A stretch of DNA of 64,000 nucleotides from Vicinamibacterales bacterium (GTDB lineage Bacteria > Acidobacteriota > Vicinamibacteria > Vicinamibacterales > UBA8438), in the NCBI GenBank assembly GCA_965208535.1, contig CBDBOU010000002.1, positions 131,701 through 195,700 on the forward strand, written 5' to 3'. A program made the translations under genes and the position numbers. A model generated the notes under the pieces. It was given only the letters and a program-made list of their open reading frames with translations. It was not told where the DNA came from and did no database searches. This document shows positions 1,960 to 15,224 of this stretch, piece by piece (positions within the stretch are counted from its first letter, which is position 1; the number at the start of each line of letters is the position of its first letter).

Positions 1960-2349
1960 TCAGGGTCGACCGCGTCCGAGATACGCAAGCACGGCCGTCG
2001 TCAACAGTCCTGACCGTCCGCCCTTGGTTCGCTTCGCGACGCGGTCGATCAACGCCAGCAACCGAGACGGCAGCGTGACGTTCACTCGTACCGCTCGTTC
2101 CGACATCAGTCCATCATCGACGGTGACGGCGGCAACGATCCCACCATCCGGCTCGATGGTGTCGCTTGGCGGCGGCACCGGCTCGCCATCCGTCAGCATT
2201 CCTTCGACGTGCAGCGCGATCGCCTCTGCCGCGTTCTGCAAGGCATCGGCGAGCGTGTCGCCGGCCGAGAAGCAACCCGGCAGATCCGGCACCGTGACGC
2301 CACACGATCCGTCCGATCGGTCCTGGTGCACGACGACCAGGTATTGCAT
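1960..2349 (-). CDS. hicB: HicB-family antitoxin with C-terminal ribbon-helix-helix
   Basis: MQYLVVVHQDRSDGSCGVTVPDLPGCFSAGDTLADALQNAAEAIALHVEG...VRVNVTLPSRLLALIDRVAKRTKGGRSGLLTTAVLAYL. Internal ATG at 2349 of ORF 1960-2496. Confidence 0.85.
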   Translation of the reverse strand: MQYLVVVHQDRSDGSCGVTVPDLPGCFSAGDTLADALQNAAEAIALHVEGMLTDGEPVPPPSDTIEPDGGIVAAVTVDDGLMSERAVRVNVTLPSRLLALIDRVAKRTKGGRSGLLTTAVLAYLGRGRP

Positions 2350-2537
2350 CACTTCCCCCACGGCCAACCGGCCTGTCGATAGATGTTGTGCAGCGTGCAG
2401 TCGGGATGTCCTTACCGGTGCTGAACCGTGACCCGACCGGGCCGGTTCGGGTGCGTGAACTACTGATGGCTGCCGCGCGCCTGCGTTCGCTTCCACCCGT
2501 CCCGCTGGAGCCGCTTGATGACCGCCGCGCTGTCCAT
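2349..2537 (-). pseudogene. hicA: hicA toxin pseudogene (in-frame TAG plus frameshifts)
   Basis: Minus-strand reading from ATG 2537: MDSAAVIKRLQRDGWKRTQARGSHQ*FTHPNRPGRVTVQHR*. The remaining HicA motifs (GKDIPT, TLHNIYRQAGW) lie in two other frames. The reading ends TGATG-overlapped with hicB. Confidence 0.7.
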
Positions 2538-2885
2538 GTATGCACTATACACACGGCGCGAATGATCAAGCGTTGACCGGCGTTCTTGGGCGTCCGACAG
2601 CACGTCTCGCAGGCTCCCCGGTCCCATGGCGCGTACCGAGCGGGTGGCGGCCAGTGACGAGCGGGATGTAATGGTGGCCGAGGACCGGCGCACCCACGCC
2701 CGTCACCGCGAGCGATGTACGCCAGTACGTCGCCCCGGACGCGCGGTTCTGCGCCGTCGGCAGCCAGGCTCCGATGCCGTTCGGGAAGTCGGTGATCAAC
2801 GACAATTACTTTGACCGGTCGGCGAGCACGCGATCGGTCGTTTCGAGGTTGCACGCAGAGTCGTGTGAGACTGCCCGTTTTCCTG

Positions 2886-4388
2886 GTGGAGGACGGGTTG
2901 GTCACGGATGCGCAGGTTCGGCGATTTCGCGAGAAACGGATGTCTGGGAAAACGTTGGCGGCGGCCGCGGCAGCGGCGGGCATGAGCGAGCGGACGGCGC
3001 GTCGTTGGCAACAGCGCGGCGCGTTGCCGTCGACGACGAACGCGCCACGGACGTGGCGGACGCGGGAGGACCCGTTCGCCGAGGTGTGGGAGTCGGAGGT
3101 GGTTCCGCAGTTGGTGGCCGACACCGACGGCCGGCTGCAAGTGCTGACGTTGTTCAAAGCGCTGTGCGTGCGGCATCCGGGCCGTTTCCAAAGGGGGCAG
3201 CTACGGACGCTGCAGCGGCGGGTTCGGGACTGGCGGGTGCAGTACGGTCCGGACCGCGAGGTGTACTTCGAGCAGGTGGCGGTTCCGGGTCGGGAAGCGG
3301 CGTTCGACTTCACGGACGCGAGCGACCTGGGGGTGACGATCCGGGGCGTGCCCTTGCCGCACCTGCTGTTCGAGTGGGTGCTCAGCTACAGCAAGTGGAC
3401 GTATGTGGGACTGGCGCTGAGCGAGACGTTCGAGGCGCTGGTGGCCGGCCTGCAGGGGGCGCTTTGGATGCTGGGCGCGGTGCCAGCGTTGCTTCGTCAC
3501 GACAACCTGTCGGCGGCGACGCACGAGCTGAAGCGCAGCGGTGGCCGCCAGCTGACGGCTCGGTTCAAGCAGGTGCTGGACCACTACGGGCTGGACTCGT
3601 CGAGGATCCGGCCGGGGAAGGCGCACGAGAACGGGGTGGTCGAGCAATCGCACTTCCGCACGAAGACAGCCATCGAGCAGGCGCTGCTGCTGCGGGGCGA
3701 CCGAGACTTCGATGACGAGTCCTCCTACCTGCGCTTCGCACGAGCGGTCGTCGACGAGGAGCGGAACCGGCCGGCGGCGGCACGGCTGGCCGAGGAGCGG
3801 GCGTTTCTGCGGCCGTTGCCGGCGTCGCGGATCCCGGAGTACACGACGTTCCGGTGCAGGGTGCGCAAGTGGAGCACGATTCGCCTCGGCAACCGGATCT
3901 ATTCGGTACCGTCGCGTCTGATCGGTCACACGGTCGAGGCGCGTCAGCACCCGTCGACGGTTGAAATCCTGTACGGCGGCCGGGTGCTGTGCACGATGCC
4001 GCGTCTTCGAGGCGCGGCGGACCACCGGATCGACTATCGCCACATCATCGCGAGCCTGGTCCGCAAGCCGGGCGCCTTTGCGCGGTACCGCTTCCGCGAA
4101 GAGCTGTTCCCGTCGCTGACGTTCCGCGCGGCGTATGACGCGCTGGGGCGGACGCACGGCGAGCGGGCCGACGTCGAGTATGTGCGGCTACTGCACCTGG
4201 CGGCCTCGACCAGCGAGCGTCAGGTCGAGACGACGCTTCGGGCTCGTCTCGACGCCGGCGACACGTGCGAGTACGCCAGCGTGCAGGCCGAAGTGCGTCC
4301 GCCGGTCCCGACCGTGCCGGTCGTAGACATCCCTCGCCCCGACCTGACGCGGTACGACGCGTTGTTGACCGGAGGCCTGCACGGATGA
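2886..4388 (+). CDS. istA: IS21-family transposase IstA
   Basis: HTH (GMSERTARRWQQRG) plus DDE core (..FDFTDASDL..., HDNLSAAT, GKAHENGVVEQSHF). ORF 2811-4388. GTG 2886 is chosen because the TTG at 2811 lies inside the terminal repeat; the start remains uncertain. Confidence 0.85.
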   Translation: MEDGLVTDAQVRRFREKRMSGKTLAAAAAAAGMSERTARRWQQRGALPSTTNAPRTWRTREDPFAEVWESEVVPQLVADTDGRLQVLTLFKALCVRHPGRFQRGQLRTLQRRVRDWRVQYGPDREVYFEQVAVPGREAAFDFTDASDLGVTIRGVPLPHLLFEWVLSYSKWTYVGLALSETFEALVAGLQGALWMLGAVPALLRHDNLSAATHELKRSGGRQLTARFKQVLDHYGLDSSRIRPGKAHENGVVEQSHFRTKTAIEQALLLRGDRDFDDESSYLRFARAVVDEERNRPAAARLAEERAFLRPLPASRIPEYTTFRCRVRKWSTIRLGNRIYSVPSRLIGHTVEARQHPSTVEILYGGRVLCTMPRLRGAADHRIDYRHIIASLVRKPGAFARYRFREELFPSLTFRAAYDALGRTHGERADVEYVRLLHLAASTSERQVETTLRARLDAGDTCEYASVQAEVRPPVPTVPVVDIPRPDLTRYDALLTGGLHG

Positions 4389-5206
4389 CGGCGCCGAGCA
4401 CGCAGGTGACGACTCTGCTGACGCAGTTCAACCTGACGACGGCGTCCGAGGAGCTGGTGCCGCGGTTGACGCAGGCAGGCCACCACGACGCGCTGCCGGT
4501 GTTGCTGGAAGTGTTCGAGGCTGAAGCCGAGGCGCGACGCCAGCGGCGGATTGCCCGGTTGCGCCGGACCTCGCGTCTGCCGCCCGGCAAGACATTCGAG
4601 ACCCTCGACACGGGTCGGTTGCCGGGCCCGGTCGTTCAGCAATTGAAGACACTGGCCAGCGGGGCGTTCCTCGAGACGGCGACCAATGTGCTGGCTTTCG
4701 GCCTGCCTGGCGTCGGCAAGAGCCACGCGCTGTGCGCCGTCGGGCACGCGCTGGTTGAGGCTGGCCACAGCGTGTTGTGCGTCCCGGCCTACGCCCTGGT
4801 CCAGGAACTGCTCGGCGCGAAACGCGACCTCGACCTGCCCCGGGCGCTGCGCAAGCTCGACCTCTTCGAGGCGATCCTGCTCGACGATCTCGGCTACGTG
4901 CAGCAGAGTCCCGACGAGGCCGAGGTGCTGTTCACGTTGCTGGCCGAGCGCTACGAGCGGCGTTCGGTAATGGTGACCAGCAACCTGGTGTTCAGCCAGT
5001 GGGACCGGATCTTCCGTGACCAGATGGCCACTGCCGCGGCGATCGACCGCTTGGTACACCACTCGGTCGTGCTCGAGTTCGACGTGCCGAGCTTTCGGAC
5101 CGACCCGTCACGGCCCACGTCATCGGCGCCATCACCGCCGCCTGTGCCTCGCGGACGTCCGCCAGGCCCCCTGTTGCCACGGCGCCGCCGACCTGCGAGT
5201 TCGTGA
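4385..5206 (+). CDS. istB: IS21-family helper ATPase IstB
   Basis: Walker A GLPGVGKSH, Walker B ILLDDLGY, SNLVFSQW, IDRLVHHS. The ATG overlaps the istA stop (ATGA at 4385-4388). Confidence 0.9.
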   Translation: MTAPSTQVTTLLTQFNLTTASEELVPRLTQAGHHDALPVLLEVFEAEAEARRQRRIARLRRTSRLPPGKTFETLDTGRLPGPVVQQLKTLASGAFLETATNVLAFGLPGVGKSHALCAVGHALVEAGHSVLCVPAYALVQELLGAKRDLDLPRALRKLDLFEAILLDDLGYVQQSPDEAEVLFTLLAERYERRSVMVTSNLVFSQWDRIFRDQMATAAAIDRLVHHSVVLEFDVPSFRTDPSRPTSSAPSPPPVPRGRPPGPLLPRRRRPASS

Positions 5207-5236
5207 AGCCTTCCGCCAGTTGCCCGGTATTGCGGG

Positions 5237-5524
5237 CCGAGCGGAGGATTCGCGCGCGGCCGAGCGTCAACGCCCATCCAGACTGTGGTCGGCGCGCGCG
5301 ATAGCGCCGCCTCCAGGCTCGCCTGGCGCAACTACGGACGCCGCTCGTCCCCACGGTTGCCGCGTGCGCCAGACGAGCCTTCCGCGGCACTCGATGGGTC
5401 GCTCGACGGAACGCCCTCTTCGGTTCGTCGTCGTCGACCACACCGTCCGGCCCAGCCGGCCGTTCCGTCTCGCGAGGGTACCCCGACCGGGCATGACCAG
5501 CACCGACGTCCGGCTCGGAACCAC
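5237..5524 (+). repeat. 288-nt non-coding module shared with the second IS21 element (copy 1)
   Basis: Aligns end to end with the reverse complement of 11437-11724 (roughly 85-90% identity by eye). Lies between the istB stop and the IS terminal repeats. No frame shows protein-like conservation. Confidence 0.8.
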
Positions 5525-5792
5525 TCGCGTTCAGTTTCCTTCAGATCTCAGTGACCGTTGACACATGAGGGCCTCTGATCCTCTCAACCGGCCAAAATGG
5601 TTGACGCTGACCGGCCAAAGTAGTTGACGCCGAACAGTCGGGGCATCGTCTGCTATTGCTGCTGCTGCCGTGGCGTGACAGCCCTGTTTGATGCTTCGAC
5701 CGCGGAGCATGACCGCCAAGTCGCACGTTCGAGGGGATGGATTGCGTTGTCGGGGACAGACAAGGCCCGGCCGGGCGTGGTAGCTTGACTAA

Positions 5793-9996: not shown

Positions 9997-11234
9997 CTAC
10001 TGTAGGTTCGAGACCTCAGCGTAAAGCGATTTCAACGAGTCATCTGACATGTCCAGGATCGGCTCATACATGAATGCATTCAAGTGAATATTCTCCGGAG
10101 TCATTAAAGATACTTTTCTCAGCACTCTAATGGTGTCCTGTTCCCCCTTGAAGCGCGAAGCAAACTCTTGTACGAGTACCGGCGTTTGGTTCTTGGTGAC
10201 ATTAGCTAAGAAAGCCGGGTCCGCTATCTTGTTGGTCATGAACCGCTCAGCCGCAAGTCTTATGGCTATGGAGAGCACGATCTTGTGTTCAAAGTTCACG
10301 CCTTCAGCCGCATTCAGGCAGTCCTTGGCTTCGTCTTCAACCATGTCGACCACGAGCGCGCCCTGATCATGAAAGGTGTCGGCCGAGGGCCCAAAAAGCT
10401 CGGTGTAGACCGTATCGAGTTCCTGTTGGGTAATTGAATCTGAAGACCCTGGTTTCCAATGAAGTAGCGCAGTTAGCCGCCCGTAATCGGCATGATCTGT
10501 CCCGTGAATGTGTTCGATGAGATTGCGCATGAACGAAATAGATGCGACTCTTTTCTTCGCATCGGTAAAGAAAGACCTCTTCCAGTCCCGCAAAAATGGA
10601 TTCCGGATTCCGAAGGCCTGAGAAAGTTCAATCTTTGCAGGACTTTTTGTTACCATCAGACACCCGGCATATCCCACAAAACGACTGTGTACCGTCCTGA
10701 AGAAATCAAAATTGTGCGTCAGGATAATCTGTCTGAATAGCGGATCCTCGGAAACGTCCTGAAGGTACTGGATAATGGCGTACTTGTTCTTATAGTCAAA
10801 CGAGTCCGCAATGTCATCAACAACAAATAGCGTCTCGCTCCTCGCGTGCCGGCGGACTTCGATTTCAAAAATAATGTTGAGAATGTACAGAGCCTTTTTC
10901 TCCCCTTGGCTCAGCGATTTCATCAGCTCGTTCCTCTCGACAGAAGTCGAATCTCCACCGTCCGTAAAGGTATACCCGAGGTCGAGCATGGAACCATGGC
11001 CGAGGACCACCGCGGCCTTGTTGTTGGCAACTAGCTTGAACGGGACGATGAAGCGGTCATTGAATAGGTCGATAGCAGCTTCCCAATGGGTGCTCTCGCG
11101 CCGCGCCTTTTCTTCTATTTCCTTTCTCTTGGCTTTGACGTGCCTGTACTGTGCAAGCAGGTCGTTGTAGGCGGATTCGTTAGCCTTGAAGTAAGATTTC
11201 CAAATGTTCTCCTTGAACAGATTGGGTATTTCGC
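9997..11234 (-). pseudogene. AAA_13-like SMC/ABC-type ATPase, C-terminal half (gene split by IS21)
   Basis: AT-richer DNA. Carries ..LSQGEKKALYILNIIFE (ABC signature), LFVVDDIADSFD (Walker B) and ILTHNFDF, followed by ~270 aa of unknown domain. The upstream ~180 aa of listed ORF 9997-11781 are read-through into the IS. Confidence 0.8.
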
Positions 11235-11436
11235 TGAAGTTGAACACCGATCTCGGTGAACGTGAACGCTGATTTCGGCGAACGTGAACGCTCGTCGGAG
11301 CGTAGCGACGATGCTCTGTCAGTTCCCTCCCTTCTGTGTCGTAACGGATCCTTGAGATCCTACTCTCGACCTCCTGGTCGAGAGGTCGAAGAAACGTTCC
11401 GAGCGTAGCGAGGGCCTTTCTGTTCCGGTCACCCCG

Positions 11437-11724
11437 GTGGGTTCCGAGCCGGACGTCGGTGTTGGTCATGCCCGGCCGGGGTACCCTCGCGAGACGCAAC
11501 GGCCGGGCTGGGCCGGACGGTGTGGTCGTCGACGACGAATCGGCAAGGGCGTTGCGTCGAGCGACCACCCGAGTGCCGCGGAAGGCTCGTCTGGCGCACG
11601 CGGCGACGGTGGGGCTGGTCGATGTCGGTTGTTGCGCCAGACGAGCCTGGAGGCGGTGCTCTCGCGCGCGGGGACCACGTCCGGATGGGCGTTGACGCTC
11701 GCCGCGCGCGAATCCTCCGCTCGG
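11437..11724 (-). repeat. 288-nt non-coding module shared with the first IS21 element (copy 2)
   Basis: Reverse complement aligns with 5237-5524. Same position (downstream of istB, inside the IS termini) and same orientation relative to istAB. Confidence 0.8.
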
Positions 11725-11777
11725 CTCCGCAACGCCGGGGCCAAGCGTCGCGGGGTTGGATGTCGCCGACGGGAGGC

Positions 11778-12536
11778 TCATGTCGTCTCCTTCTGGCCGT
11801 TGGTTGGCGCGTCGTGCGTCCGCCGCATCGAGCGGCCCTTGAGCTCGATGCGGTGCGCGTCGTGGAGCAGGCGGTCGCAGATGGCGTCGGCCTGGTTGGG
11901 GTCTCCGATGACGGCGTGCCAGTCGGTCACCGGCAACTGGCTGGCGATCAGCGTCGAGGCGCGCTCGGCGCGGTCCTCGATGACCTCGGTCAGGTCCCGG
12001 CGCTCGGTGTCACGCAACGGCGCGAGCATCCAGTCGTCGATCGCCAGCAGGTCGAGCCTGGCCAGCCGGGCGAGCAGTCGCGTATAGGAGCCGTCGCCGC
12101 GGCCGACGGCCAGCTCGTGCAGCAGGCGCGGCATGCGGAGATAGCGCGCGGTGAAGCCGCGGCGGCACGCCCGCTCGACGAACGCGCACGCCAGGAAACT
12201 CTTTCCGATCCCGCACGGCCCGGTGAGGACCAAGTTGTGGCGCTCGGCGATCCACGCGCAGGTTCCCAGCGTCAGGACCTGCTGGCGGTTGAGCCGACGG
12301 GGATGGGTGAAGTCGACGGCTTCGAGCGACGCCGGGTAGCGCAGCTTCGCGGTGTGGAGGCGGCGCTGCAGCTTGCGCTGCTCGCGGGCGGTCCACTCGG
12401 CGTCGACGAGCAGCCCGAGGCGCTCCTCGAAGCCGAGCGCGGCGGCCTCGTCGGTCTGCAGTTGTTGCTGGAAGGCGTCGGCCATCCCGCCCAGCTTCAT
12501 GGCGTTGAGCTTGTCGAGCGTCTGTTCGATCAGCAT
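11778..12536 (-). CDS. istB: IS21-family helper ATPase IstB
   Basis: MLIEQTLDKLNAMKLGGMADAF.., Walker A GPCGIGKSF, Walker B LLAIDDW, DRLLHDAHRIELKG. The ATG at 12536 overlaps the istA stop. Confidence 0.9.
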   Translation of the reverse strand: MLIEQTLDKLNAMKLGGMADAFQQQLQTDEAAALGFEERLGLLVDAEWTAREQRKLQRRLHTAKLRYPASLEAVDFTHPRRLNRQQVLTLGTCAWIAERHNLVLTGPCGIGKSFLACAFVERACRRGFTARYLRMPRLLHELAVGRGDGSYTRLLARLARLDLLAIDDWMLAPLRDTERRDLTEVIEDRAERASTLIASQLPVTDWHAVIGDPNQADAICDRLLHDAHRIELKGRSMRRTHDAPTNGQKETT

Positions 12537-14092
12537 CGGTCCTCCTCGGTGGTCGTGGCCGCGGCGTAGTAGTCGGCCCCGCGGATATTGGCGTGCGTCG
12601 GCGTCGGGGCCGTCTCGGCCGGCGGCTCGATGGGCAAACGGTCCTGGCCGGCGGTGAGGATGTTCCTGACGGTGTGATAGCGGCAGGAGCCGAGCGCGAG
12701 GGCGCGGGCGCAGGCCGCCTCGAGCCGGATGTTTCCGTGACGCCGCCCCAGCTGCATGATCCCCAGACAGGGGCGATAGCCCTGCTCGGGGTGCGGGCGG
12801 CTCTCGAGGATCCGGGTGACGAGCTGCCCGGTCTCCGGTCCGACCTTGTTGGCCCAGCGGATCAGGCGTGACGGCGACCACTCGGCGTGCGCGCGGTGGG
12901 CGCTGGGCATGTGCTCGGCGATGGTCGACGGCTGGCGGTCGTAGCGGCGCCGGTGCGACGCGATGCGCTTGTCGCGATGGAAGATCTCGACCGTGTTCGT
13001 CGTGTAGCGGACCTCGACCTGCTCGCGCAGCAGTTGGTACGGGACGCTGTAGAAGTGGCGCTCGACCTCGACGTGGTAGTCGATGTTGACGCGGCACTGC
13101 TTCCACTGCGCGAGGACGTAGCGCGCGGCGGGCAGGGGCCGCAGCGCCGGGCGGTCGAGCTGCTCGTACAGCGCGCGGCGGCTGACGCCCAGCTTCTTCA
13201 TCGGCCGGTCGTTTAGCTCGTCGAGCAGGTCGCGGATCGCGGCATTGAGCGCACCGAGCTCGAAGAAGGTCTGGTCGCGCAGCCGGGCGAGTATCCACCG
13301 TTGCGCGATGAGCACACAATTTTCTACGGCAGCCTTGTCCCTCGGCTTCCTCGGCCGCGCCGGCAAGACGACCGCGCCGTAGTGCGCGGCCAGGTCCTCG
13401 TAGGTGCGGTTGACGCCGGCCTCGTAGCGGCAGGGGCGGGTGATGGCGCTCTTCAGCTGGTCGGGCACCCACATCGTCGTGGAGCCGCCGAAGTACTCCG
13501 CCATGTGAATGTGGGCATCGACCCAGTCGGGCAACTGCTGGGTCCGGGTCGCCTCGGCGTAGGTGAGGCTGCTGGCGCCGAGCACCGAGACGAACAGCTC
13601 GACCGGCCGCAGCTCACCCGTGCGCCGGTCGACCAGGCTGGGCCGCTTGCCCGAGAAGTCGATGAAGGTCTTCTCGCCGGCGCGGTGGATCTGTCGCATC
13701 GACGGCCGCAGCCGCCGCACCCATTGCCGGTAGATCTCGCAGAACTGCGTGTAGCGGTAGCCGCTGGGATGGACCTGAAGGTGCTCCTCCCAGAGCAGTT
13801 GCAGCGTGACGCCGTCGCGCTTGAGTTCCCGGTGGATGTAGGCGCAGTCAGGCCGGACCCGGTTGCGCACCGGCGCCGGTCGGGGAAACAACTGCGCCTC
13901 AAGCGCCGCGTCGTCCAGTTCGGCCGGCAACGGCCAGCCCAACCCTTGTTGCGCCGTCCGCTTCAGATACAGCGTGACCGTGCCCACGCCCATGGCGCAG
14001 GCCTGGGCTATCGCCCGGTGGGGCAACCCCCGCTCATACTTGAGCCGAAGAACCTCACGAATCTTCCTCATCAGCAGCCTCCGTGCCGGCAT
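12530..14092 (-). CDS. istA: IS21-family transposase IstA
   Basis: 520-aa ORF with HTH (LPHRAIAQACAMGVGTV) and DDE region (FIDFSG.., VPDQLKSA, PRKPRDKAAVEN). Confidence 0.9.
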   Translation of the reverse strand: MPARRLLMRKIREVLRLKYERGLPHRAIAQACAMGVGTVTLYLKRTAQQGLGWPLPAELDDAALEAQLFPRPAPVRNRVRPDCAYIHRELKRDGVTLQLLWEEHLQVHPSGYRYTQFCEIYRQWVRRLRPSMRQIHRAGEKTFIDFSGKRPSLVDRRTGELRPVELFVSVLGASSLTYAEATRTQQLPDWVDAHIHMAEYFGGSTTMWVPDQLKSAITRPCRYEAGVNRTYEDLAAHYGAVVLPARPRKPRDKAAVENCVLIAQRWILARLRDQTFFELGALNAAIRDLLDELNDRPMKKLGVSRRALYEQLDRPALRPLPAARYVLAQWKQCRVNIDYHVEVERHFYSVPYQLLREQVEVRYTTNTVEIFHRDKRIASHRRRYDRQPSTIAEHMPSAHRAHAEWSPSRLIRWANKVGPETGQLVTRILESRPHPEQGYRPCLGIMQLGRRHGNIRLEAACARALALGSCRYHTVRNILTAGQDRLPIEPPAETAPTPTHANIRGADYYAAATTTEEDRC

Positions 14093-14249
14093 CGCCTCGC
14101 CCCTCCCGTCGAAAGGGCGAAAGCATGCTGGGTCAGGCTACCGACGAGCGTTCACGATGACCGAAATCGGTGTTCAACATCCCGAAATCGGCGTTCAACT
14201 TCCTCCGAAACCGGCGTTCAACTTCCCCCGAAACCGGCGTTCAACTTCC

Positions 14250-15224
14250 TCCGATAAACCCAAACAGATCGAGCTTTGCTAAGTGCGGCAAGAGAAGTTC
14301 ATCGTCGCAAAGATAACGCTGAAATTCCCTGAGCTTGGCGTTCTTCTCTAGCTGCTTCTTGATGGCGGCAAACCGAGTCTTCAACTGCGAGTCGCTCGCG
14401 ATGTGGTCCATTTCTTGAGATATTAGGCCCTCGAGCTGCTTTTGCGTTGTTATTTCAGTCTTGGTGTCAGCATGTAGCGTTAGGCTGTGTTTGGCGTCGA
14501 AGAAGCCGTTGTTTGCCAGCGTTCTTGCTATTTGTCCGGCGTTGTAATATTCGAACACGCCCCTTTTGAAGTACGTTGAAGCCTCAAGCAATTCGTTGTA
14601 ACGAATGATGTAGTCATGGATCGCGGCCGTGAGCGAAGGTGTCTTCAGTGCTTCCAGTATCTTGTCGTCGAAAATGGAGTCATACTGAACGTGTGCAAAC
14701 GGAGAGTCAGACTGATCCTCGATTTCGGCGCTGACACGTTCTAGGGCCTGATAGAAGGACTCTTCGTCGTCGTTCTTTGTAAAGGCAAGCGCGATCTCAT
14801 GGTCGAGCCGCTTTTTCTTTGAGCCGGATTGTCTCTTCATTGCCTGCAGGAAACTCGTCTTCGACCGATTTATGTCCAGGTGCAGTTGTTCGTATTCCTT
14901 ACGCAAGGTGTTATTCAACAAGAGCGTAGAAGTCTTTTCGCTATGGCTGAAGAATTCGTCGTATGGAGGAAGAACCAGAACGCTTTCCGGTGGAAGGTCG
15001 ACGTCGCTTTCATCCGTGATTTGTCGGGTAGTGGCACGAGAGGGAAATATTCTGTCAGTTGATGCCTTGCCATTGGCAATATCTTGGAATGTCTGAGCGA
15101 AGGACGATTTCATCGAGCCGTTGGGTGCGTAGAGTGCGTACACCTTGCGCTGAGAAAAGTCGAAAGTGTGAGACAGTTCCCTAATTCCGTAGCAATTGAG
15201 CAACTGGACCTTGACCTGATGCAC
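14250..15224 (-). pseudogene. AAA_13-like SMC/ABC-type ATPase, N-terminal half (gene split by IS21)
   Basis: GTG 15224 is preceded by GGAGG. VKVQLLNCYGIRELSHTFDF..VYALYAPNGSMKSSF is a Walker-A-like P-loop, followed by a long helical region. The listed stop at 14241 lies inside the IS. Confidence 0.8.

Follow-up and report, generated by a model that had tools for sequence, protein, structure and literature searches.

Insertion sequences (ISs) are usually regarded as minimal entities, made up of transposase genes and ends. Among those that carry more than this are the transporter ISs (tIS, in the usage of ISfinder), in which passenger DNA separates the transposition genes from one of the terminal repeats. 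Several ISs bear structured RNAs: the omega/re-RNA of IS200/IS605-family TnpB and of IscB (HEARO), the bridge RNA of IS110, the seekRNA of IS1111 and RNA-OUT of IS10. ERIC, Correia and RUP are small dispersed non-coding repeats, and hairpins of the REP/BIME type, located 3' of genes, stabilise the upstream mRNA. In our literature searches, no description was found of a non-coding RNA of IS21 or of a non-coding passenger shared between ISs.

Here we analyse a non-coding segment, named module 1, which occurs twice in a 64,000-nt stretch of a Vicinamibacterales genome (the window), each time within an IS21-family element. As in tIS, it is extra DNA placed between genes and end and mobilised passively, and relatives of one of its carriers (element C, see below) hold 0.2-2 kb of other cargo in that place. 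Unlike tIS passengers, module 1 is non-coding; it is moreover 88-95% identical across elements whose proteins are 26-44% identical, and it reaches into a second IS family. With the IS-borne RNAs it shares a non-coding, fold-prone sequence in fixed orientation beside a transposition gene and near the element end. It differs from them in the company it keeps: there is no RNA-guided nuclease or recombinase, since its neighbours are IstA, a DDE transposase (rve), and IstB, an AAA+-type ATPase (PF01695), or OrfA/OrfB of an IS3-family element. It also differs in lacking covariation, an Rfam match and guide-like, element-specific complementarity to ends or targets, and in not overlapping the element end. 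Similarly to REP/BIME, ERIC, Correia and RUP sequences, module 1 is multi-copy, GC-rich, hairpin-forming, non-coding and located downstream of genes, but no free intergenic copy turned up among the loci collected, and it is far longer and lacks defined termini. What is new in comparison with the known passenger-DNA ISs is a non-coding cargo which is common to several lineages and families and which displaces a covarying module.

Results

Two copies of module 1 in the window

Element A occupies positions 2793-5636 of the window on the plus strand (2844 bp, TG...CA ends) and is flanked by the 5-bp target duplication GTCGG (2788-2792 and 5637-5641). These limits were obtained by reading of the sequence, and the inverted ends match those of a relative, L049. 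The istA gene (ORF bounds 2811-4388, the true start being probably an ATG near 2940) encodes the Pfam domains rve and Mu-transpos_C_2. It is joined by an ATGA overlap to istB (4385-5206; 273 aa from MTAPSTQ...; PF01695, E 2.7e-46), the product of which shares 91-95% identity with the IstB proteins P0001-P0006 of the database. The right terminal repeats (5586-5636) align with the right end of L049 and include two copies of GGCCAAANTRGTTGACGC, at 5590-5607 and 5613-5630 (2 exact matches compared with 0.22 expected).

Element B lies on the minus strand (11223-14262, 3040 bp) and has, again by sequence reading, TG...CA ends (TGGGTTTATCGG... / ...GAAATACCCA), three to four repeats at each end and the 7-bp target duplication ATCTGTT (14263-14269 and 11216-11222). 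Its istA (12530-14092) matches rve and Mu-transpos_C_2, and its istB (11778-12536; 252 aa from MLIEQTL...; PF01695, E 4.6e-67) encodes a protein 88-97% identical to P0121-P0131. The native right-end region with the terminal repeats (11223-11384, minus strand) is 81% identical by BLASTN over 162 nt to the relatives L055-L059, which are devoid of module 1, and homology with the right end of the relatives L055-L065 reaches elB 3068, that is, window position 11223. Element B splits a single gene for an AAA_13/SMC-like ATPase (9997-11222 and 14263-15224, minus strand), with ATCTGTT at both junctions and the Pfam AAA_13 match on the downstream half.

Both elements thus present istA (DDE, rve and Mu-transpos_C_2) followed by istB (PF01695), together with inverted terminal repeats containing repeated sub-motifs, TG...CA ends and a short target duplication, which is the organisation of the IS21 family. 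Close IstB homologues number in the hundreds, some of them being labelled 'IS21-like element helper ATPase IstB'. The proteins of A and B are as strongly divergent as the initial annotation of this DNA had judged by eye, identity being 27% for IstA (E 4e-11) and 26% for IstB (E 1e-13).

The same annotation had noticed that 5237-5524 on the plus strand and 11437-11724 on the minus strand, 288 nt each, resemble each other at about 85-90%. The resemblance is real. Identity of the two cores is 89.7%, MAFFT alignment of 5200-5600 (plus) with 11360-11780 (minus) gives an unbroken identity block across these coordinates, and repeat detection recovers the pair as inverted-repeat arms of 173 nt (86%), 67 nt (96%), 25 nt (100%) and 23 nt (96%). 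The copies are separated by three 1-nt indels. BLASTN comparison with other copies of module 1 returns E values from 1e-116 to 1e-143, which excludes chance. The 288 nt hold as a core, not as the full size of what is shared. In element A the segment covers 5207-5524 (plus strand; BLASTN 89.7% over 319 nt to L028/L016, supported by the alignments and by lack of codon periodicity), homology to the longest known version (L028:1480-2000) beginning at 5207, the very base after the istB stop. In element B it covers 11387-11740 (minus strand; BLASTN 91.6% over 356 nt to L028), where it begins 37 nt past the istB stop and replaces the native spacer of B relatives. The part common to A and B is 11437-11724, and the 3' extension to 11387 is common to the B copy, element C, C variants and an IS3 copy. 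The 288 nt are therefore the core of a non-coding cargo segment of 0.3-0.45 kb, module 1. As previously proposed, its place in both elements is downstream of the istB stop and ahead of the terminal repeats, and it is oriented like istAB.

Element A retains a short lineage-specific remnant spacer (5525-5585, plus strand) that separates module 1 from the right terminal repeats; 5518-5563 is also present in an A-like copy, L046 (BLASTN 91% over 47 nt). In the right end of element B, CCGTTACG was considered as a remnant of the palindrome CCGTTACGTAACGG and this was rejected: the sequence is native to the B lineage, L056 having GATCCGTTGCG there. Two more direct repeats near the elements, 6816-6955/8232-8371 (140 nt, 91%) and 1976-2091/7376-7491 (116 nt, 97%), are unrelated to module 1.

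Distribution of module 1

Copies of module 1 in genomes and metagenomes were located by scans with exact patterns. The genome collection yielded 35 loci, all in Vicinamibacterales or in Acidobacteria MAGs. No fewer than 27 of them reside in one 7.8-Mb MAG contig and represent a 3420-bp IS21 element, element C (L008:2265-5684), the copies of which are mostly 100% identical, the rest at least 99.9%, and have 5-7-bp target duplications. Variants of element C (L016, L021, L026 and L028, about 94% identity) have 95 extra bases on the 5' side of module 1 and contain its longest version, of about 440-520 nt. In a further IS21 lineage, D (L015, L038, L041, L043, L045), module 1 is found some 250 nt past istB; IstB of this lineage is about 44% identical to that of A over the comparable region. 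Finally, in L039 and L040 module 1 lies between orfB and the right inverted repeat of an IS3-family element (left end TGAGGTGGTCTCGG..., right end ...CACCACCTCA).

The metagenome scan added 13 loci, and the sequencing runs containing module 1 are mostly sponge or coral metagenomes. When a translation of module 1 was compared by phmmer with 1.8 billion representatives, 39 cluster-representative ORFs were obtained, the frames of which are mutually scrambled. Such frame switching among spurious ORFs implies many further copies of module 1 with frame-breaking indels. No BLASTN match was found among 72,556 plasmids, the module 1 pattern had no match in viral contigs, and an nhmmer profile detected no remote homologue among all other fetched IS21 3' spacers. 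Among the loci found, module 1 always lies within an IS, apart from short or truncated pieces (L003, L047, L046).

These data show transfer of module 1 between elements of sponge-associated Vicinamibacterales, namely at least four IS21 lineages, whose IstB proteins are 26-44% identical, and one element of the IS3 family. The initial description of a non-coding module common to otherwise unrelated IS21 elements is thereby confirmed, its restriction to two such elements is not.

In L040 (460-5167), the IS3 copy bearing module 1 stands directly upstream of a type I-C cas3-cas5c-cas8c cluster, and the gene caller joins a frame of module 1 to cas3 (an 806-aa ORF). In L039, a group II intron (2066-3963; Rfam D1-D4-6, 175 bits, with a reverse transcriptase ORF) is situated 12 nt past the right end of the IS3 element.

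Relatives without module 1 define a cargo slot

Close relatives of the carriers allow us to see what the position of module 1 holds when module 1 is missing. L049 is 87% identical to element A at the nucleotide level through istA-istB down to the last base of the istB stop, where an unrelated spacer of about 240 nt begins, ahead of a right end of the same type as in A. With element B, L055-L059 share 88-90% identity as far as the istB stop, and the match resumes 3 nt past the end of module 1; the interval holds a different 227-nt segment. L069, 87% identical to element C, consists of C 1-2435 joined to C 3309-3420 and has no cargo at all. Homology with the module-less relatives thus breaks at the istB stop codon in A and B and 24 nt before it in C; the cargo of element C (873 nt, L008:4700-5572, with the direct repeat CACCTTG on both flanks) encodes the last eight codons of istB. 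Other C relatives have different cargo there, of about 0.2 kb, 1.7 kb or, with a 472-aa ORF, 2 kb.

Since A, B and C all have relatives lacking module 1, and since the content varies among close relatives from an unrelated spacer through a different structured module or other cargo to nothing, the junction between genes and right end is a cargo slot. Module 1 is cargo and not ancestral backbone of any of its carriers. The stretch from the last transposition gene to the right terminal repeats is the only dispensable place in these ISs, and module 1 is one of its occupants. That the module might be a cassette acquired by recombination, one of the options raised initially, is supported by these breaks of homology at or near the istB stop. 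The copies are intact cores in many contexts rather than random fragments.

Several insertions were encountered in these regions. A second copy of the IS3-family element (L026:1741-4214), itself without module 1, is inserted into a copy of module 1. Insertion of this element into module 1 has occurred at least twice (L026:1741-4214 and L039:1-56), once at about position 296, with a 3-bp duplication, and once near 340, and in L001 another repeat truncates module 1, which thus seems to be a frequent landing site for other elements. In L050 (3826-5012) and L049 (5152-6234), a gene for an IS110-family (DEDD) transposase starts inside or just past the right terminal repeats of A relatives, and this suggests that IS110-type elements target IS21 ends for insertion. 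A 96-aa ORF (NAERQARYRERRKAG...) of the C cargo appears divided between two reading frames in the 27-copy element.

Boundaries and mode of exchange

The 5' boundary of module 1 is different for each host, falling at positions 135, 124, 108, 101, 75, <=60 and <=39 of the longest version, and 3' boundaries concentrate around 425-429 or 473-479. No terminal inverted repeats were found on module 1 across the copies. The distance from module 1 to the right end ranges from about 40 to about 560 nt across elements. Its neighbours are mosaic: the palindrome CGTTACGTAACG follows module 1 in lineage C and in the IS3 element and precedes it in lineage D (L041), and, accompanied by the initial bases of the 96-aa ORF region, it is found at L041:517-565 and also at L001:1678-1725, while the 85-nt piece bearing it is missing from L015. 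L040 holds a piece resembling the right-end repeat of A, and L046 retains, behind module 1, a spacer hairpin of the L049 type. Small sub-modules are shuffled within the cargo slot.

A miniature mobile element of its own (MITE- or PATE-like), targeting the region behind transposase genes, is hardly credible in the light of these boundaries. It could account for the many copies, for the recurrent 3' boundary near ...GGCTCGGAACC(C), seen in A, D, L046 and several metagenome contigs, and for the direct repeat CACCTTG around the C cargo, but the variable 5' boundary and the missing terminal inverted repeats speak against it. So does the fact that no stand-alone copies with target duplications are present among the loci found, and in A and B module 1 substitutes for sequence instead of interrupting it.

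Ragged boundaries around a constant core, lack of terminal inverted repeats and mosaic neighbours favour recombination over transposition in its own right. Module 1 would pass between co-resident elements by illegitimate or homologous recombination of their 3' non-coding regions, and after the transfer it is copied passively at each transposition of its host element; elements A, B and C all bear target-site duplications, consistent with such passive mobility. The tree of module 1 is star-like, with the version of the C variants nearest to the root, and this shape, together with pairwise identities of 88-95%, points to a recent horizontal origin.

A second module in the same position

The 227-nt segment which element B has lost to module 1 is the native 3' spacer of B relatives, and we call it module 2. 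It follows directly behind the istB stop and precedes the right-end repeats, in the same orientation as module 1, and measures about 175-230 nt. Module 2 is present in the B relatives L055-L065, among which it is 73-82% conserved, and an nhmmer profile retrieves it also from the C relatives L068 and L073-L075; copies lie, for example, at L056:3320-3505, L060:3311-3498, L061:3324-3512, L064:3253-3435, L074:3160-3347 and L068:3915-4100. Like module 1, it is common to unrelated IS21 lineages.

Module 2 folds as nested hairpins with TGGAAAACGCG...CGCGTTTCCCACA and GCCTNTGGATCC...GGCTCCACAGGC. Compensatory changes affect 8 of its 39 pairs, compared with 2.4 ± 1.2 in shuffled alignments (500 of them, none reaching 8); in slid controls the number is 0-1. 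It has no match in Rfam and no BLASTN match in the 72,556 plasmids. Sixteen matches of an 18-mer of module 2 in viral contigs were dismissed as chance, and the one weak, partial nhmmer match has no IstB nearby. Module 2 is a candidate for a new IS21-associated structured element.

The two modules do not cross-match in nhmmer. Module 1 is longer, unrelated in sequence and, in contrast to module 2, free of compensatory changes. Presence of a covarying module in the same slot is nevertheless the main reason to suspect functional structured elements there, module 1 being a possible analogue. Taken to its full extent, this would mean that IS21 elements and at least one IS3 element reserve a place directly behind the last transposition gene for structured non-coding modules that can be swapped, of which at least two unrelated ones circulate horizontally among lineages. 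So general a reading is doubtful at present. If true, it would mean that RNA or single-strand DNA takes a hitherto unrecognised part in controlling these transposons, for example by limiting read-through over the right end and the junction promoter, or by setting the stability of transposase mRNA.

Coding potential, structure and transcription of module 1

Module 1 was rejected as a protein-coding passenger gene. In a GC frame plot, codon (GC3) periodicity is strong in istB and in the neighbouring 96-aa ORF and absent from module 1, the indels among its copies are of 1-2 nt, its frames are scrambled in the 39 ORFs mentioned above, and six-frame translations have no match in Pfam. Nor was any protein-like frame conservation seen in the 288 nt when they were first annotated, and no coding signal has come to light since.

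RNA structure had also been proposed for the module. The two window copies fold with z-scores of -3.3 and -3.7; over 12 variants, MFE z-scores range from -0.6 to -3.4 for the sense and from 0 to -3.8 for the antisense strand, so that the effect is modest and without strand preference. RNAalifold predicts 83 pairs, none of them with a compensatory change, and both the covariation score and the proportion of paired cells (96.9%) equal those of shuffled alignments; at a mean column identity of 92%, this test has little power. The proposed structure is thus not backed by covariation. Of its helices, the outer ggagg/cctcc is not retained (CCTCC changes to CCTAC, uncompensated, in 5 of 12 variants), the enclosed cgcgcgcgg/ccgcgcgcg is largely retained (three pairs are broken in one or two variants), and ctggcgca/tgcgccag is kept in all variants, with no compensatory change in either of the last two. 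The Rfam scan (E <= 1; the window region and eight loci, including L008, L028 and L039) found no family over module 1, the sole match being mir-5316 with 23.7 bits compared with a gathering score of 70 (E 0.19).

Variation along module 1 is uneven, which gives some hints of constraint. In single-sequence MFE structures, variable columns make up 30-36% of paired and 36-46% of unpaired positions, a slight excess in the latter (shift-null p 0.007-0.43). In helix 6, with arms GGCTCGYCTGGCGCA and TGCGCCAGACGAGCC, the 14 predicted pairs are never broken, and the 34-nt loop between them is the most variable part of the module. Variable columns are clustered (36 adjacent pairs compared with 23.3 ± 3.3 expected, p = 1.5e-4), and the variance-to-mean ratio of site rates is 2.3 compared with 0.93, a heterogeneity weakened by shared ancestry and by ascertainment through the search patterns. 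Part of the block invariance is imposed by the exact-match patterns with which the copies were collected. Within the C lineage, divergence of module 1 is 0.064-0.105 as against dS of 0.10-0.47 for istAB, but divergence declines in the 5'-to-3' direction from istA through istB to module 1, so that its low value in module 1 is explained by recombination as well as by selection.

Long invariant inverted repeats, among them the 15-bp GGCTCGYCTGGCGCA / TGCGCCAGACGAGCC, and folding without strand preference would also suit a site acting at the level of DNA: a platform for nucleoid proteins, bent or cruciform DNA, an accessory of the right-end transpososome, or a hot spot for 3'-end exchange. Module 1 adjoins the terminal repeats, and one study reportedly found superhelical crossings trapped by IS21 transpososomes. 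Such a site would, however, have to serve transposases of two unrelated families (IS21 and IS3) as well as IS21 ends that differ in sequence, and to do so at the widely varying distances from the right end given above; compact relatives such as L069 transpose with no spacer at all. We regard a DNA-level role as improbable.

Neither a sigma-70 promoter nor an intrinsic terminator was recognised in module 1 by consensus motif scans. Contigs of sponge metatranscriptomes contain module 1 at a depth about 5-6 times that of istB. In contigs of DNA metagenomes its depth is already 1.5-5 times that of istB, and copy number therefore explains most of the excess in RNA; enrichment of module 1 RNA, not clearly exceeding DNA copy number, was dropped as an argument. 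These findings bear on another possibility, a trans-acting or antisense small RNA whose variable loops, set between invariant stems, would find their pairing targets in the host or within the same element. Presence in metatranscriptomes and the arrangement of loops and stems agree with it, but a promoter motif and RNA enrichment beyond copy number are both missing, and complementarity of the variable loops to their own element (9-11 nt) is not above that to other elements (8-11 nt). Guide or antisense pairing with the own element was accordingly rejected, and a small RNA of this kind is very improbable.

Discussion

The best explanation of module 1 as a whole is, in our opinion, a non-coding cargo exchanged by recombination in the 3' slot of ISs and probably having a cis-acting role as a 3'-UTR element. 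We put its probability slightly above even, at about 55%. The cis-acting role taken separately is less certain, and we would give it about one chance in three. According to this explanation, module 1 would be a structured element of the 3'-UTR, acting in cis on the transcript of the transposase genes, its likely role being that of a transcript end, an insulator or a stabiliser. It might limit read-through over the right end and the junction promoter, or shield the 3' end of the mRNA. In element B, it would functionally replace the covarying module 2 of the relatives. Its length counts against a cis-acting RNA, 300-450 nt being long for a simple terminator.

The most serious competitor, less probable in our view but far from negligible, is a functionless hitch-hiker: neutral filler in the only dispensable site of an IS, spread by recombination or gene conversion among nested elements and conserved simply because that spread is recent. 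Much of what we found agrees with it. There is no covariation, the folding z-scores are modest on both strands, and RNA is not enriched beyond copy number. Boundaries are ragged, with the palindrome and the 96-aa ORF as neighbours in varying order, and the divergence gradient along the element points to recombination. Other elements frequently insert into module 1 (L026, L039, L001), and the slot of relatives accepts arbitrary cargo. Three observations are less easily reconciled with an inert passenger. Firstly, at least five independent element contexts, although their flanks differ, all preserve a core of about 280 nt intact and in one orientation. Secondly, its variation is confined to patches between invariant blocks. 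Thirdly, in element B it displaced a module selected for base pairing, an exchange that would be costly if the position mattered and the newcomer were inert.

Whichever of the two applies, module 1 behaves like an accessory that several unrelated elements can exchange, and it takes the place of a module selected for base pairing. If the modules do nothing, they offer a clean marker of how frequently the 3' ends of co-resident ISs recombine in the IS-swollen genomes of sponge symbionts. If they act on transposase expression, they would constitute a new regulatory layer in a very widespread family of transposons.
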